This document shows, piece by piece, positions 6,494-25,461 of a stretch of 64,000 bases of DNA. How positions within the stretch are numbered: the stretch's first letter is position 1; each line of letters opens with the position of its first letter. Source of the DNA: Acidimicrobiia bacterium (lineage in GTDB: Bacteria; Actinomycetota; Acidimicrobiia; Spongiisociales; Spongiisociaceae); the NCBI GenBank assembly GCA_003229305.1, contig QIDH01000055.1:3240-67239 (forward strand). The letters run 5' to 3'. A program made the translations under genes and the position numbers. A model generated the notes under the pieces. That model worked only from the letters and a program-made list of their open reading frames with translations, was not told the DNA's origin and made no database searches.

Positions 6494-7828
6494 TCAATGG
6501 CCAACGGCGGCTGCCCCCTTCTCACCCGTCAGGGTGCCCTTTTCGAAACGATCGAGCTGGAAGGCTTCGATCAGTTTCGGTATTCGGCCGGTGGCGACAG
6601 CCTCTGCGGTCTGTTCACCTGCGACCGGTCCTGCCTTGAACCCGTATGTTCCCCAGCCAACATCCACGTAAAACCCGTCAACAGGCGTCGGCCCGATGAT
6701 CGGGGAGAAGTCTGGCGTCATGTCGCACAGGCCGGCCCACTGACGCAGCAGACGCAGCTTGGCAAGGCTCGGCATCAACTGGAGGACGTGGCCTGCCAGG
6801 CTCTCGATGAACTCGAGCGAGCCGCGGGTCGAGTATGAGGCGAAGGGGTCGGTGGCAGCACCGAAGACGAGTTCGCCTCTGGCGGTCTGGCTGACGTAGA
6901 CGTGTAACGACCCGGAGACGATGACTGGGTCCAGGAACGATTTGACCGGCTCGGTTACAGCGGCTTGCAGCGGCCTTGTGTGGATCGGCATCTTGACCCC
7001 AACCATGTCCGAGATGATCGAACTCCAACCGGCAGTGCAGTTGATCACGATCGGTGCCGAGACGTCTCCCCTCGACGTACGCACCCCTACGACCTTGTCG
7101 CCCTTGACGTCGATGCCGGTGACCTCTGTGTTCATGTGAAGGTGAACGCCTTGCGCGTCTGCCGATCTGGCGTACGTCCAAACCACCGCGTCGTGGCGGG
7201 CGATGCCGCCTGGCGGATGCCACAGCGCTCCGAGGATTGGATAACGAGCTTGGCCGCTGACATCCATTAGCGGGACGAGTTTCTGTATTTCTTCTGGGGT
7301 GATGACTTCGCTGTCGATGCCCTGCAACTTGTTTACCTCGGCCCGCCAGCGCATGGTCCGCAGCGAGGCGTCGCTGTGGGCCAGGGTCATGTGGCCCCGC
7401 TGTTCGAACATCACGTTGAAATTGAGATCCTGCGACAGGCGTTCGAAGAGGTGAACGGACCGGTTGTAGAAGGCCACCCCCTCTGGTGTGAGGTAGTTGG
7501 ATCGAATGATCGCCGTGTTGCGTCCTGATCCACCGCTGCCGATGTATGACTTCTCGATGACCGCAACGTTGGTGATGCCATGGTTCTGTGCCAAGTAGTG
7601 GGCGGTCGCCAGGCCATGCAGACCGCCACCGACGATCACGACGTCATAGGTCGGCGCCAAATCGTGATGGCGCCAAACCCGTGGCCAGTCTCCGCCCCTC
7701 ATCCCCTTGCGTATCAGGCTCAGGGCAGAGAACTTGCGCCCGGTTCGACCGGCTTGTTTGGCCAACGTGGGTTCTCCTTGGCGCATCGTGTGACCCCACC
7801 TCGGACGTGCGATCTGATCGTGCGACAT
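6494..7828 (-). CDS. soxB: Sarcosine oxidase subunit beta (start uncertain; alternative ATGs at 7786 or 7702)
   Basis: YDVVIVGGGLHGLATAHYLAQNHGITNVAVIEK FAD motif with a SoxB-like body. The maximal ORF is 444 aa, and 7786 has a better GGTGG upstream. Confidence 0.9.
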   Translation of the reverse strand: MSHDQIARPRWGHTMRQGEPTLAKQAGRTGRKFSALSLIRKGMRGGDWPRVWRHHDLAPTYDVVIVGGGLHGLATAHYLAQNHGITNVAVIEKSYIGSGGSGRNTAIIRSNYLTPEGVAFYNRSVHLFERLSQDLNFNVMFEQRGHMTLAHSDASLRTMRWRAEVNKLQGIDSEVITPEEIQKLVPLMDVSGQARYPILGALWHPPGGIARHDAVVWTYARSADAQGVHLHMNTEVTGIDVKGDKVVGVRTSRGDVSAPIVINCTAGWSSIISDMVGVKMPIHTRPLQAAVTEPVKSFLDPVIVSGSLHVYVSQTARGELVFGAATDPFASYSTRGSLEFIESLAGHVLQLMPSLAKLRLLRQWAGLCDMTPDFSPIIGPTPVDGFYVDVGWGTYGFKAGPVAGEQTAEAVATGRIPKLIEAFQLDRFEKGTLTGEKGAAAVGH

Positions 7829-7912
7829 CCTAGGCCCAGATCAACGAGGTGTTTCCGCTCGTCCGAGGACTCGGACGGAAATGTTGGGTCGGCGCGCGGG
7901 TAGCGTGGCCTG

Positions 7913-8311
7913 ATGGATGTCACAGGCAATATATCGAAGCCAAACCGAGTCGCCTCCGTCCGATCGGGAGGCGTGGTCGAGGTCACATTGGCAGCGCTCG
8001 TATTCGTCGGCGTGTTGGCTCAAGCGGCCCTGGCTGGGCAGCACATAGCCTTCGAGTCGTCGATCACGCTTCACGGCGTGATCGGCAACGCAGTGTTTGC
8101 CTTCCAGGCTATCTTGGTCGCAAGCGCCGTCTTCAAGAAGATGAGCAGCGAGGCGAAGCTGATTGTCGCCGCGATGTTGGTCCTGCTTGCAGCCCAGACC
8201 GGACTCGGTTATGCGGGCCGAGAGGCGGAGGGTTTGGTCGCATGGCACATTCCCCTTGGGGTCGCGTTGTTCGGCTTGGCTACATTGCAGCTGGCTCGGA
8301 TTCGCAGCTAG
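7913..8311 (+). CDS. Small integral membrane protein, unknown function
   Basis: 132-aa ORF with four predicted hydrophobic helices. Confidence 0.5.
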   Translation: MDVTGNISKPNRVASVRSGGVVEVTLAALVFVGVLAQAALAGQHIAFESSITLHGVIGNAVFAFQAILVASAVFKKMSSEAKLIVAAMLVLLAAQTGLGYAGREAEGLVAWHIPLGVALFGLATLQLARIRS

Positions 8312-8354
8312 TGCAGTCTGGTTCGGTGCCTCTTGGTCTCCTGGTGAGCAACGG

Positions 8355-22279: not shown

Positions 22280-22870
22280 CTACGCCTCTTTCGCTACCGG
22301 GCCAGGAGAGCGGGCCTCGCGCACTGTGGCTCCGGTGAAGCGAGCTCTGATGTCTGCTTCGTATCGGGCATCGACGATTGATCGCCAGACCGGCGCAAGG
22401 ACGACGCCGAGTCCAGCCAATCCGATGGACAAACCTGTGAACCACACAAGAGATGCGATCCCGTCTGAAAGATCGACGAGACCCCATCTGCCCAGCAGAA
22501 AGGCCCAATCATGTTGGCCTCCAATCAGTGGGAGGTCCTGAAAAGGGGCGTCTGCGATGTAGATCGAGACGTTCTGCGCTGCTGTTGCCGCCCACCCCAG
22601 CATCAGGCCGCTGGCGATCTCGTCACGTTGGCTCAGCCAGAAGTATGCGCCGAGCCCGAGCGGCACGGATATCTGGGCCACCGAACCGGCCAAGAACTGG
22701 GGGACGACACCGAAGCCCGATCCGAGAAGATGTCCTAGTTCGTGAAAACCGAGATCCACCAGGCTCAACAGGGGAATGCTCCGTCCGGCGGCAAATGCTG
22801 CGCCGATTCCGAGCGCGACGATCAACGAAACGATGATCGAAAGTGCGTTGGCGCGGAACTCGGTTGTCAT
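22280..22870 (-). CDS. Polytopic membrane protein with an HExxH motif (putative intramembrane zinc metalloprotease)
   Basis: ATG at 22870 (MTTEFRANALSIIVSL...). A GFHELGHLLG motif lies at the end of TM helix 2, followed by several further TM helices. Confidence 0.5.
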   Translation of the reverse strand: MTTEFRANALSIIVSLIVALGIGAAFAAGRSIPLLSLVDLGFHELGHLLGSGFGVVPQFLAGSVAQISVPLGLGAYFWLSQRDEIASGLMLGWAATAAQNVSIYIADAPFQDLPLIGGQHDWAFLLGRWGLVDLSDGIASLVWFTGLSIGLAGLGVVLAPVWRSIVDARYEADIRARFTGATVREARSPGPVAKEA

Positions 22871-22970
22871 ATGGCGGTATCGACATTTGGAGGCCGAATC
22901 TGGAATTCGGGCGGCTAATTGGGTACCGGGACCCAGCGGCGACATCTTTGGGGCGCTGTAATCTCAACCT

Positions 22971-24101
22971 GTGACGAACTCTGCACCCGATGATCGTTCA
23001 AGGCGTCTGCTGGCTTTCGGCTTCGGTGTGGTCGCATTGATCATCGGCGTCGCGGCTTTCCTCATGATCAGAGGCGGAGGTCCGGCCCTGTTGCCGGATC
23101 TGGAATCGTTGCCGCCGGGCGCGCCGGCCTTTGCTGTCGTCGAATGGCCGCCGGATTCCGGGAATCTCGGTTTGATGCTCCGGTTCGACGGCGTGATTGC
23201 CAACGTCGGGGAGGGGCCTCTGTTTGTGGACGGGGATCCGAGCGGACTGTCCCAGACCGCGGACCCGATCGCCCAGGTCCTGTTTGACGCGTCTGGTTCG
23301 ATCGTTGACCGGCTGCCCCTGTCAATCGGATCCTCAGAATCCGATGTGCGCTTCGAGAACTCCGATGGTCATGGCCACTGGCATCTCATGAGTGTGGCCG
23401 AGTATTCGCTTTGGTCGGACTCTGAGGACCTGCGATTAGTCGCAGGATCCAAGATCGGATTCTGTTTGGCGGACGTACAGCCGGTCGATGACTACGAGGG
23501 GGAGTTGACGACGGCCGTCTATGACGCCGCCAATCAGTGCGCGCCGGGAGATTCAGAGGCAGCGTTTCTGGCAATGGGGATTTCCGCCGGCTGGGCAGAC
23601 GTGTACTCGTTCTCGATCGCCCTGCAATGGATCGATGTGACCGACGTGGCACCTGGCGTCTATCGACTGGCAGGCGTGGCAGACCCAGGCGGCGTGCTGG
23701 CCGAGTCCAATGACAACAACTTGCTCGTTTTCAGGCCGGAACCGGTGATTGTGCCGGGCTTCCTGGCTGTCGAGGCTCAGGTCGACGTGCGTGGTAGCAC
23801 TGCATTCCGGCTGTCCGCTGACGCTTTCCAAGGCGACCTCGACCTCGGCCTCGAAGGCGAGGACGCGCAGGATCCCGTGGCGGTCGCCGCAGGTTCGCCT
23901 CGGTTCGTGGTAGTGGAGCCGCCAAGCAATGGCTCGCTCAACGTGGAGGTCGGAGTCGAATTCGAAGCCCCAGACATCGTCTATACGCCGGCGGTCGGAT
24001 TCGTCGGTGTCGACTCGTTCACATTTGTCGCGATCGATCCCGGTTTCGACGATCCGCGGCCGCCGAATACTGCGGTGGTCACCCTCAACGTGGTTGGTTG
24101 A
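22971..24101 (+). CDS. Lysyl oxidase-like copper amine oxidase with N-terminal membrane anchor and C-terminal Ig/cadherin-like domain
   Basis: HGHWH copper-binding His triad. SKIGFCLADV aligns with the LTQ lysine context of animal LOX (HKASFCLEDT). GWADVY aligns with the LTQ tyrosine. QWIDVTDVAPGVY matches LOX QWIDITDVKPGNY. Confidence 0.75.
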   Translation: MTNSAPDDRSRRLLAFGFGVVALIIGVAAFLMIRGGGPALLPDLESLPPGAPAFAVVEWPPDSGNLGLMLRFDGVIANVGEGPLFVDGDPSGLSQTADPIAQVLFDASGSIVDRLPLSIGSSESDVRFENSDGHGHWHLMSVAEYSLWSDSEDLRLVAGSKIGFCLADVQPVDDYEGELTTAVYDAANQCAPGDSEAAFLAMGISAGWADVYSFSIALQWIDVTDVAPGVYRLAGVADPGGVLAESNDNNLLVFRPEPVIVPGFLAVEAQVDVRGSTAFRLSADAFQGDLDLGLEGEDAQDPVAVAAGSPRFVVVEPPSNGSLNVEVGVEFEAPDIVYTPAVGFVGVDSFTFVAIDPGFDDPRPPNTAVVTLNVVG

Positions 24102-25461
24102 CGGACGCGCCATCGGGGGACGACGACGCCAGTCCGTGTTCAGTCGCCGTTTGGTCTTCGTAGAACCGCCAGGCCAGCAACATCGCGACCGATGTCGAGA
24201 CCAATGCAATCAAAGTAAGGCCCTGGTAGGTACTCAGTATGGCTTCGGCTCCCGACTCGACGGCGAGCCTTTCCTCAAATCGACGAATGAAGAATGTGAG
24301 CAAAGGCACGGCGGTCATCAGCGCGGCCACCGCGAGACTGAAACCAAGCAATCCGCCGGCGATACCCAGCCTGGCGGGTTCAACCGATCCCATGATGAAG
24401 GTGTAGTTGGCGGCAAGGAAGGCTCCGGCGCCGATGCCGATCATGGCCCCAGCCGAGAGACCGAGCCACAGCCCGGTGTCCGTCCCCAAAGCCTGGGTGG
24501 CAAGGAATCCGACGACCAGCAGCGCCAACCCTTTCAAGGCGACCGGTCGAGGTCCGGACCGATCGACCACCCGACCGGCAATGGCGGCGCTGAGGAGCCA
24601 GGTTATCGCCACGGCAAGGGGGAGGACATCGTCGAAGACTGCGCCGAGCAGGTAGGCCTGGTCCAGACTGGCCAGCGTCGCAGCGAACAAGAAGCCGTTG
24701 AACAACGCCGCGCTGAAACCTCTGGACTTGAAAATCTCGGGGTTGAGCAGCGGACTGTCGACTCTTGACTCTATCCAAACGAAGTTGACCATCAGAATGG
24801 CCGACATCGCCAAGAGGACCAGTACCCATCCATTGGCGAAACCGTTCTCGTAGCCGAAAACGAAGCCCAAGATCAGGCAAACGGTCGAACCGGTGAACAC
24901 GGCGGCTCCTACCCCGTCAAAGCTCTCTTCGCTCGACCTGGGTGAAGAAACAATAAGCCGCCGGGAAGCGACCGCGCCGATCACGGCGACGGGCAGGCTG
25001 AGCAAAGAGACCCATTGCCAACCGACCGCATATGTGAACAACCCCCCAACTACCGATCCGATCAATCCGGCCGACACCAAGATCCCAAAGGCTCTACCCC
25101 GCTCCGACGGCGGAGTCGCTTCGACCAAGAGGCCCAGGCCCAGCGATAGCAATAACGCGGCGCCGACGGCCTGGAATGCCCGGAACACAACCAGCAACGA
25201 GAAGTTGGGAGCCAGACCGTACAGGGGAGAGGCGACTGCCAGGATCACGAATCCGTACGGAAAGAGCTTGTTCCTCCCCTTCAGATCTCCGAGTCTGCCT
25301 GAGATCACCAACAACGGCGTCGATACCAACAAGAAGGCGACGCGCACCCAGCCGACCGAACGAATCCTGACGAGGTCACTGACAATGAACGATCCCACCG
25401 AATCCGTCGCCACCACGGCATTGATCGCGACCAACACAACTCCGAGAGCGACGATGGCCAA
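24085..25461 (-). CDS. MFS transporter (DHA2-like, about 14 TM)
   Basis: 458-aa polytopic ORF with the GRLGDLKGRNKLF MFS loop 2-3 motif. Confidence 0.85.
   Translation of the reverse strand: MAIVALGVVLVAINAVVATDSVGSFIVSDLVRIRSVGWVRVAFLLVSTPLLVISGRLGDLKGRNKLFPYGFVILAVASPLYGLAPNFSLLVVFRAFQAVGAALLLSLGLGLLVEATPPSERGRAFGILVSAGLIGSVVGGLFTYAVGWQWVSLLSLPVAVIGAVASRRLIVSSPRSSEESFDGVGAAVFTGSTVCLILGFVFGYENGFANGWVLVLLAMSAILMVNFVWIESRVDSPLLNPEIFKSRGFSAALFNGFLFAATLASLDQAYLLGAVFDDVLPLAVAITWLLSAAIAGRVVDRSGPRPVALKGLALLVVGFLATQALGTDTGLWLGLSAGAMIGIGAGAFLAANYTFIMGSVEPARLGIAGGLLGFSLAVAALMTAVPLLTFFIRRFEERLAVESGAEAILSTYQGLTLIALVSTSVAMLLAWRFYEDQTATEHGLASSSPDGASVNQPR

Follow-up and report, generated by a model that had tools for sequence, protein, structure and literature searches.

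Does the lysyl oxidase homologue (LOX) encoded by an Acidimicrobiia MAG form a functional pair with the HExxH membrane protein encoded next to it in divergent orientation, or are the two genes simply neighbours? A preliminary description of the locus, a 64,000-nucleotide stretch of contig QIDH01000055.1 (hereinafter, the window), had considered such a pair conceivable, with the membrane protein as a possible processing protease. Both open reading frames are present at the coordinates given there and are divergently oriented (Table 1). We consider it probable that LOX is a membrane-anchored, extracytoplasmic copper amine oxidase, that the HExxH protein represents a separate family rather than a dedicated partner, and that the adjacency of the two genes is a matter of inherited gene order.

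Table 1. Features of the LOX locus (positions in the window; residue numbers refer to the respective protein)
Feature	Coordinates	Strand	Basis or remark
196-aa polytopic membrane protein, unannotated HExxH family	22280..22870	-	ORF; AF2 pLDDT 93.7, helical bundle
His120-Asp121-Trp122, loop after helix 4	22505..22513	-	invariant columns in alignment A1
HELGH, residues 43-47, inside predicted membrane helix 33-53	22730..22744	-	AF2 helix; alignment A1
Divergent intergenic spacer, 100 bp	22871..22970		between HExxH gene (-) and LOX (+)
Lysyl-oxidase family gene	22971..24101	+	ORF of 376 aa starting with GTG; coordinates include the stop codon
N-terminal membrane helix (predicted signal-anchor), residues 8-34	22992..23072	+	AF2 helix; Kyte-Doolittle hydrophobic stretch 10-41
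LOX catalytic domain, residues 40-262	23088..23756	+	domain HMM envelope 40-251; Foldseek alignment; alignment A2
Copper site His134-Gly-His136-Trp-His138	23370..23384	+	aligned with HRHYH of LOXL2 (His626/628/630)
Lys161, LTQ precursor lysine	23451..23453	+	aligned with K of GHKASFCL, LOXL2 Lys653
Tyr212, LTQ precursor tyrosine	23604..23606	+	aligned with Y of CWDMYRH, LOXL2 Tyr689
C-terminal beta-rich region with Ig/cadherin-like domain, residues ~263-376	23757..24098	+	strands span 259-374 (AF2)
DHA2/EmrB-like MFS transporter	24085..25461	-	Pfam MFS_1, TIGR00711 both sub-threshold

The Pfam search for the lysyl oxidase family that had been suggested as a check yielded a significant match above the gathering threshold (PF01186, 46.9 bits; cut-off 20.4) over residues 128-250, a match that spans only positions 78-185 of the 204 in the model. 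Human LOXL2 (5ZE3) was aligned by phmmer with an E-value of 5e-8 and with the histidine triad, the lysine and the tyrosine all in register, and the same structure was the top PDB match of the AF2 model (pLDDT 87.9) in a Foldseek search (E 2.3e-7, probability 1.0, 239 columns, rmsd 4.3), with ~21% identity in the structural alignment. Thus, the original assignment to the lysyl oxidases holds at the level of both sequence and fold.

The Pfam family, the fold, the His-x-His-x-His copper hairpin and the positions of the lysine and tyrosine of the lysyl-tyrosylquinone (LTQ) cofactor are the same as in LOXL2 and the other animal LOX/LOXL proteins. The characteristic motifs occupy residues 134-138 (HGHWH), 160-169 (SKIGFCLADV), 207-212 (GWADVY) and 219-231 (QWIDVTDVAPGVY), and the QWIDVTDV strand, along with the Glu and Asn residues of the calcium site, also aligns between the window protein and LOXL2. 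In particular, E245-S-N-D-N-N aligns with E722-S-D-Y-S-N-N of LOXL2, so that E245, N247, N249 and N250 are opposite the calcium-site residues E722, D724, N727 and N728; the LPDL motif (residues 41-44) is presumably the equivalent of the calcium-site D549/L550. Across 36 prokaryotic homologues (alignment A2), no variation occurs at H136, H138, K161, Y212, Q219, D222 or E245, and H134 shows at least 90% conservation. The conservation of the Lys, Tyr and His residues, named beforehand as a check on the claim that the copper site and the LTQ residues are retained, is therefore borne out by the alignment. The 376-aa protein has no lysine other than Lys161, which all close homologues retain. In LOXL2, His626, His628 and His630 are metal-binding (PMC5899467).

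The N-terminus contains one hydrophobic helix by both the Kyte-Doolittle profile and the AF2 model, which suggests that the protein is extracytoplasmic and anchored at the cell surface. Tat export was considered in view of S-R-R at residues 10-12, but the twin arginine (11-12) is not conserved in P0004-P0006, which makes a Tat signal unlikely. The catalytic domain opens with the conserved LPDL only ~6 residues past the membrane helix, leaving no room for a propeptide. In the C-terminal region, the match to Big_9 (PF17963) over residues 300-357 is sub-threshold (18.6 bits against 23.6); PF17963 is present in homologues, and Foldseek retrieves cadherin and transglutaminase Ig-like domains for this region with a probability of 0.99. 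The model shows the N-terminal helix and a beta-rich C-terminal domain, in support of the membrane anchor and the Ig/cadherin-like domain described previously. The combination of a LOX domain with a Big_9-like domain is common: most of the best 150 representatives listed align over query positions ~39-374. Compared to LOXL2, the window protein lacks the SRCR domains and the propeptide, has the membrane helix and the Ig/cadherin-like domain instead, and contains two cysteines versus 10 in the LOXL2 catalytic domain. Being so compact (no propeptide, two cysteines, a single lysine), it should be convenient to express and to use in work on the cofactor.

Prokaryotic LOX homologues were described in 2015, with Actinobacteria among the five bacterial clades listed (Grau-Bove et al., PMC4448552), and HTU-LOX of the archaeon Haloterrigena turkmenica is an active, BAPN-sensitive amine oxidase after removal of its N-terminus (PMC6452851). 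The window LOX shares with these proteins the simple plan of a LOX domain preceded by an N-terminal hydrophobic segment, as well as the conserved His triad and LTQ residues (PMC4448552, PMC6452851). Unlike HTU-LOX, in which an inhibitory stretch (Ala39-Gln92) lies ahead of the domain, it has the domain almost immediately after the helix and adds the Big_9-like domain. PF01186 was found in 49 of the 201 sampled genomes of the phylum (24%), and in the phylogenetic tree, the window LOX falls into one clade with LOX of other Acidimicrobiia that share its syntenic location, a pattern that fits vertical descent with loss. The view of prokaryotic LOX genes as sporadic and horizontally spread is weakened by these observations: the rarity was overstated, and the clade and synteny are compatible with vertical inheritance combined with loss. 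Bacterial LOX being already known and common in the phylum, the window gene is one more apparently intact, membrane-anchored example from a family that has been catalogued yet is biochemically almost unstudied, and its significance hardly extends past annotation.

The adjacency of LOX and the HExxH gene is confined to the family of the window's own genome (f1) and near metagenomic relatives, where it is embedded in a syntenic block of ~9 kb. The shared gene order, TauE-HExxH-LOX-MFS-infA-MFS-777aa, was identified in G001, G006 and the contigs of P0003 and P0004. Neither G003 and G039 nor the P0006 contig (L028) keeps the two genes adjacent; the complete genome G052 carries two LOX genes and no HExxH gene. 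When 80 diverse LOX loci were scored for a HExxH gene within 6 kb, 79 had none, the exception being a locus from the same genus. Likewise, in the 201-genome sample, 42 of the 49 LOX-containing genomes lack the HExxH gene, and the two genes are adjacent in none of the six other genomes in which they co-occur. The raw co-occurrence is enriched (7/11 versus 42/190, naive Fisher p 0.005), but we do not read it as a sign that the two genes are linked: four of the six co-occurring genomes besides the window's own belong to one family, with LOX in 8 of its 9 genomes, so that the signal in the phylum sample is driven by a single LOX-rich family, and in the order sample, significance vanishes without f1 (p = 1). 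Thus, neither gene neighbourhood nor the co-occurrence across genomes that had been proposed as a check bears out the functional pair, and the tempting idea of a dedicated protease partner for LOX is unsupported and can be removed; the adjacency is local gene order inherited within one Acidimicrobiia family. A promoter scan of the intergenic spacer detected no sigma-70-like consensus, such a scan being uninformative for this phylum.

Within this family, the HExxH, LOX and MFS genes make up a single indel flanked by TauE and infA, which leaves room for a lineage-specific link, and a module in which the three products work together can be envisaged: LOX might, for instance, be cut by the HExxH protein in its membrane anchor or juxtamembrane linker and thereby be released or activated, and the MFS protein could move the amine substrate or the aldehyde product. 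Compatible with a module are the joint absence of the three genes, as one block, from four members of this family that have no LOX (G002, G004, G014 and G020), the presence of LOX and HExxH together (genera g1, g3 and g6) or their absence together across f1, and the retention of the LOX-MFS adjacency in G003 and L028, from which HExxH is gone, in addition to G001, G006 and the contigs of P0003 and P0004. Furthermore, the predicted HExxH/HDW site would face the outer side of the membrane according to the model, the gap between the LOX helix and domain is short, and animal proLOX is activated by a HExxH protease, BMP-1. However, a single gain or loss event could explain the entire pattern in f1, linkage between HExxH and LOX is missing in G003, G039 and six genomes from the phylum sample, most LOX genomes have no HExxH gene, and there is no propeptide on LOX to remove. 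The genes also lie on different strands, HExxH and LOX divergent, LOX and MFS convergent with a 17-nt overlap at the LOX 3' end, and so do not form one operon. On balance, joint function of the three genes appears unlikely. An extended version, in which they make up a mobile surface-chemistry cassette that one Acidimicrobiia lineage acquired at the TauE-infA junction, with HExxH as a new metalloprotease that sheds or activates LOX, strikes us as very improbable; if true, its intramembrane or juxtamembrane protease would be a bacterial analogue of the BMP-1 activation of animal proLOX.

The neighbour itself represents a membrane family that is conserved, lacks annotation and is likely to contain a metal site. 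Its 196-aa form agrees with the homologues, and the longer 221-aa reading from position 22945 is not conserved. At least 149 homologues were identified, 0 of them with a Pfam domain, and a Pfam search of 31 family members gave no match at E<=10; comparison of the window protein with Pfam, NCBIfam and PDB produced no relative, that is, no known peptidase family or solved fold. The HELGH motif noticed initially is indeed there, as part of a GFHELGH signature in which G41, H43, E44, L45, G46 and H47 are invariant among 31 homologues (alignment A1). The other invariant elements include Q66, P70, W93, D107-A-P and GG-x-HDW, the latter within a later LxLIGGxHDW motif, and HDW (120-122) is a candidate source of the third metal ligand. 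The protein is perhaps a metal-dependent hydrolase, the label of processing protease having been derived from the HExxH motif alone.

An intramembrane metalloprotease akin to site-2 proteases, acting on anti-sigma factors and unrelated to LOX, would be another role for the HExxH protein, and we regard it as quite unlikely. In common with the M50 and M50B families, the protein is small and polytopic and has its HExxH motif inside a predicted membrane helix, and two distant homologues (L115 and L117) adjoin a gene for an ECF sigma factor and a downstream unknown/DUF5667 gene. However, the NxxPxxxLDG motif, whose LDG on a second helix supplies the third zinc ligand in site-2 proteases, is absent and the set of invariant residues is different; hhalign against an M50-type alignment gives a probability of 2.7%, Foldseek finds no PDB match, and a genome search with the Pfam M50B model (PF13398) misses the HExxH ORF in both G000 and G006, so the M50/M50B assignment is not supported. 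The association with sigma and anti-sigma factors was dropped: it is limited to two of three distant contexts, with no sigma factor near HExxH in the third, in the loci of 12 relatives or near the window gene.

For LOX itself, the preferred reading as a copper amine oxidase would imply that the protein first inserts into the membrane by its signal-anchor; His134, His136 and His138 of the catalytic domain would then bind Cu(II), and Tyr212 and Lys161 would be self-processed to the LTQ cofactor. At the cell surface, the enzyme would then oxidatively deaminate primary amines to aldehydes, NH3 and H2O2; the candidate substrates are free amines or the peptidyl-lysine of proteins in the envelope or matrix, and the Ig/cadherin-like domain probably holds the enzyme to a surface partner or selects one. 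A Lys-rich candidate substrate was not found near LOX: no window ORF of at least 80 aa exceeds 7% Lys, and the neighbours are Lys-poor. A non-catalytic role for LOX, as a surface or binding protein with only the fold retained, as might be suspected from the long branch of its subclade (stem 0.49) and the 32% identity between the LOX of G000 and G006, compared to 56-90% for the flanking genes, is highly improbable given that the five catalytic residues and the calcium-site Glu are invariant or nearly so in the 36 homologues, the fast-evolving subclade included, and that the single lysine kept is the one that would form the cofactor.

The LOX gene (see the table) encodes a genuine lysyl-oxidase homologue and appears to be intact. 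The protein scores 46.9 bits against the Pfam Lysyl_oxidase model (cut-off 20.4), and a phmmer search of all PDB sequences returned human LOXL2 (5ZE3) as the sole match (E 5e-8). The phmmer alignment places HGHWH (residues 134-138) on HRHYH of LOXL2, Lys161 of SKIGFCL on the Lys of HKASFCL, and Tyr212 of ADVY on the Tyr of WDMY; the corresponding residues of LOXL2 are the metal ligands His626, His628 and His630 and the precursors of the lysyl-tyrosylquinone (LTQ) cofactor, Lys653 and Tyr689 (PMC5899467). Furthermore, E245-S-N-D-N-N is aligned with E722-S-D-Y-S-N-N, the source of four of the six calcium ligands in LOXL2 (PMC5899467). Among 36 prokaryotic homologues drawn from several phyla, H136, H138, K161, F164, D210, Y212, Q219, D222, Y231 and E245 are invariant, and conservation of H134 is at least 90%. 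The AlphaFold2 model built on this alignment (mean pLDDT 87.9) has 5ZE3 as its top match in the PDB (E 2.3e-7, probability 1.0, 239 aligned columns). The preliminary description had proposed a bacterial LOX with an H-x-H-x-H copper site and the Lys and Tyr of LTQ; the family search, the fold comparison and the residue conservation all bear this out.

Features of the locus and of the related loci discussed in the text
Feature	Sequence	Position	Strand	Remarks
LOX gene	window	22971-24101	+	376 aa, GTG start
HExxH membrane-protein gene	window	22280-22870	-	196-aa form, start at 22870, common to homologues
Spacer between divergent LOX and HExxH genes	window			100 bp
DHA2/EmrB-like MFS gene	window	24085-25461	-	downstream of LOX, convergent
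Overlap of LOX and MFS 3' ends	window	24085-24101		17 nt
Codon of Lys161 of LOX	window	23451-23453
HExxH-LOX-MFS indel	window	22280-25461		three genes
Segment compared with window LOX	L029 (G006)	7278-8348
Two LOX genes near each other	L028	300-7629
Two LOX genes near each other	L032	7008-10220
HExxH member beside ECF sigma factor	L115	2482-4606
HExxH member beside ECF sigma factor	L117	2605-4603

In the protein, a LOX-family domain that keeps all the catalytic residues follows a single N-terminal membrane helix and is itself followed by an Ig-like domain at the C-terminus; the anchor and the Ig/cadherin-like addition described initially are both recovered. Hydrophobicity and the model agree on a single hydrophobic helix at residues 8-34, and the catalytic domain starts at the conserved LPDL (41-44), some six residues further on, which leaves no room for a propeptide, in contrast to animal LOX, which has one, and to HTU-LOX, which has a propeptide-type stretch. 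Conservation does not extend to the twin arginine close to the N-terminus, which makes a Tat signal unlikely; we therefore read the helix as a predicted Sec-type signal anchor. Residues ~263-376 are beta-rich and, in structure matches of the model, resemble cadherin and transglutaminase Ig-like domains; a Big_9 match in this region falls just below the threshold. Only two cysteines (165 and 190) are present, compared with ten in the catalytic domain of LOXL2. Lys161 is the only lysine among the 376 residues, and the closest homologues contain two or three each, always including the cofactor lysine. This could stem from the lysine-poor, acidic make-up of exported proteins here (a neighbouring 777-aa protein is as lysine-poor as LOX) or, alternatively, from selection against self-oxidation; under either reading, the pattern indicates that the cofactor lysine is strongly constrained.

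By analogy with the established chemistry of the family, the His triad would bind Cu(II), LTQ would arise autocatalytically from Tyr212 and Lys161, and the enzyme would convert primary amines to aldehydes by oxidative deamination on the outer face of the membrane, freeing ammonia and hydrogen peroxide. Related proteins bear SLH, He_PIG and Big domains, which point to a probable cell-envelope setting. Possible roles include cross-linking of envelope or matrix proteins and scavenging and modification of free amines; the window encodes no lysine-rich candidate substrate.

Bacterial LOX is already covered in the literature, and the gene in the window adds one more member. LOX has been reported in five bacterial clades, Actinobacteria included, with a conserved His core and LTQ residues and mostly simple architectures (Grau-Bove et al. 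2015; PMC4448552), and a LOX from a haloarchaeon has been shown to work as an amine oxidase that is sensitive to BAPN and relaxed in specificity (Pestov et al. 2019; PMC6452851). When 1.84 billion cluster representatives were searched exhaustively with HMMER, 1534 matched at E<=1e-10 and 5331 at E<=1e-3, some of the weaker matches arising solely from the Ig-like domain. Most of the best 150 matches listed are aligned over query residues ~39-374, indicating that the LOX-plus-Ig-like module is widespread, usually within longer proteins. In a collection with one genome per species, 260 stretches encode a relative, the best 80 of which come from Planctomycetota, Myxococcota, Bacteroidota, Verrucomicrobiota and Actinomycetota, among others. 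The description of prokaryotic LOX as sporadic makes it rarer than it is across the phylum of the window, where PF01186 scores above the cut-off in 49 of 201 evenly sampled genomes (24%) and reaches 12/14, 11/14 and 8/9 in some families. The distribution within the order is patchier (6 of 61 genomes).

The window belongs to a MAG of 1.95 Mb (completeness 72%), with an uncultured Acidimicrobiia bacterium as its nearest named relative. In a quick, unrooted FastTree of 122 LOX domains, with SH-like support only and 21 near-redundant Flavobacteriales rows omitted, the window protein groups with a same-genus genome and three metagenomic proteins in a starred clade of five. This clade is nested in a starred 17-member clade that includes LOX of G003, G052, P0148 and P0006-P0008; the domain-search scores of P0148 are those of the ORF from the same-family genome G006. 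Another, distant LOX type is found in G003 and, as a tandem pair, in G039. Taken together, the clade and the shared chromosomal position are those expected of a gene inherited vertically and lost at times within this lineage, not of one recently transferred. The suggestion of horizontal spread is accordingly disfavored for the recent past of this lineage, whereas the deeper history is beyond an unrooted tree that contains no named outgroups and in which most metagenomic proteins carry no taxon name. LOX and the adjacent MFS gene evolve much faster than the surrounding genes: LOX is 32% identical between the window genome and G006, compared with 56-90% for the flanking genes. Identity is only 32-35% for LOX and the adjacent MFS, and infA, TauE and MFS2 are 90%, 68% and 63% identical, respectively. 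In some relatives, two LOX genes lie near each other; in L028, the contig of P0006, a 987-aa LOX bearing He_PIG/Big_7 and a 542-aa LOX bearing SLH stand on either side of a cellulase/SLH gene.

The proposal that LOX and its divergent HExxH neighbor form a functional pair finds no support in comparative genomics. LOX is flanked by opposite-strand genes on both sides and so shares an operon with neither; its convergence with the MFS gene excludes co-transcription. LOX and HExxH are adjacent and divergent in five loci (the window genome, one genome of the same genus, one of the same family, and the contigs of P0003 and P0004), all with the common surroundings TauE, HExxH, LOX, MFS, infA, MFS and a 730-780-aa protein. 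With the same neighbors in every case, the adjacency is uninformative beyond shared ancestry. Elsewhere the two genes separate. The contig of P0006 reads LOX-MFS-MFS-746aa, and what lies upstream is a cellulase instead of HExxH; in G003, LOX is beside MFS on one contig and HExxH is on another, with no LOX within 981 bp upstream; G039 has its LOX pair and HExxH on separate contigs; and the complete genome G052 encodes two LOX genes and lacks HExxH. The LOX-MFS adjacency, retained in G003 and on the P0006 contig, outlasts that of LOX and HExxH. Among 80 LOX loci from diverse species (flanks up to 6 kb), HExxH is nearby at one, the same-genus locus, and missing from the other 79. HExxH occurs without LOX in 12 of the 17 HExxH-bearing genomes of the order sample, 42 of the 49 LOX genomes in the phylum sample lack HExxH, and the six genomes that have both genes besides the window genome carry them on separate contigs or 170-210 kb from each other. 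Fisher tests of presence and absence give p of about 0.005 when kinship is naively ignored; the order-level signal disappears once family f1, that of the window genome and G006, is removed (p = 1), and four of the six phylum-level co-occurrences besides the window genome come from one family with LOX in 8/9 genomes. In our view, this significance does not speak for a link between the genes.

Four genomes of the window's family that lack LOX have TauE directly beside infA-MFS2, which implies that HExxH, LOX and the first MFS gene come and go as one block, and within f1, LOX and HExxH are present together or both absent. These patterns would be expected of a lineage-specific three-gene module, but a single insertion or deletion accounts for them, making the block weak evidence for a link; such a module is improbable.

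The divergent neighbor is polytopic and carries HELGH, as described initially; a longer version of 221 aa, starting at 22945, lacks conservation among homologues. The homologues number at least 149, are ~190-200 aa long and have no Pfam domains; the few that bear a name are called 'hypothetical protein'. Where named, members of the family are mostly from Acidimicrobiia/Actinomycetota. Across 31 diverse members, G-F-H-E-L-G-H (41-47), G62, Q66, P70, Y76-F77, W93, D107-A108 and L-x-L-x-G-G-x-H-D-W-A (113-123) are invariant; the motifs are also written GFHELGH, DAP and GGxHDW. The AlphaFold2 model is confident (pLDDT 93.7): its long helices pack into a bundle, and HELGH lies midway along helix 33-53. 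Searches of Pfam and NCBIfam with the protein, of Pfam at E<=10 with each of the 31 members, and of the PDB by sequence and profile gave no match, and Foldseek found nothing in the PDB better than E 0.3. The Peptidase_M50B model does not match, and hhalign assigns a probability of 2.7% against an M50-type alignment compiled from relatives; neither identity is supported. Given the invariant HExxH and the later His/Asp, a candidate metal-dependent hydrolase is a reasonable guess. Two distant members adjoin an ECF sigma factor followed by an unknown or DUF5667 gene, an arrangement not seen in 12 other contexts. Several family matches (L015 in G049, L016 in G058, and those in G068 and G154) contain one in-frame TGA or TAG and may be pseudogenes or assembly errors.
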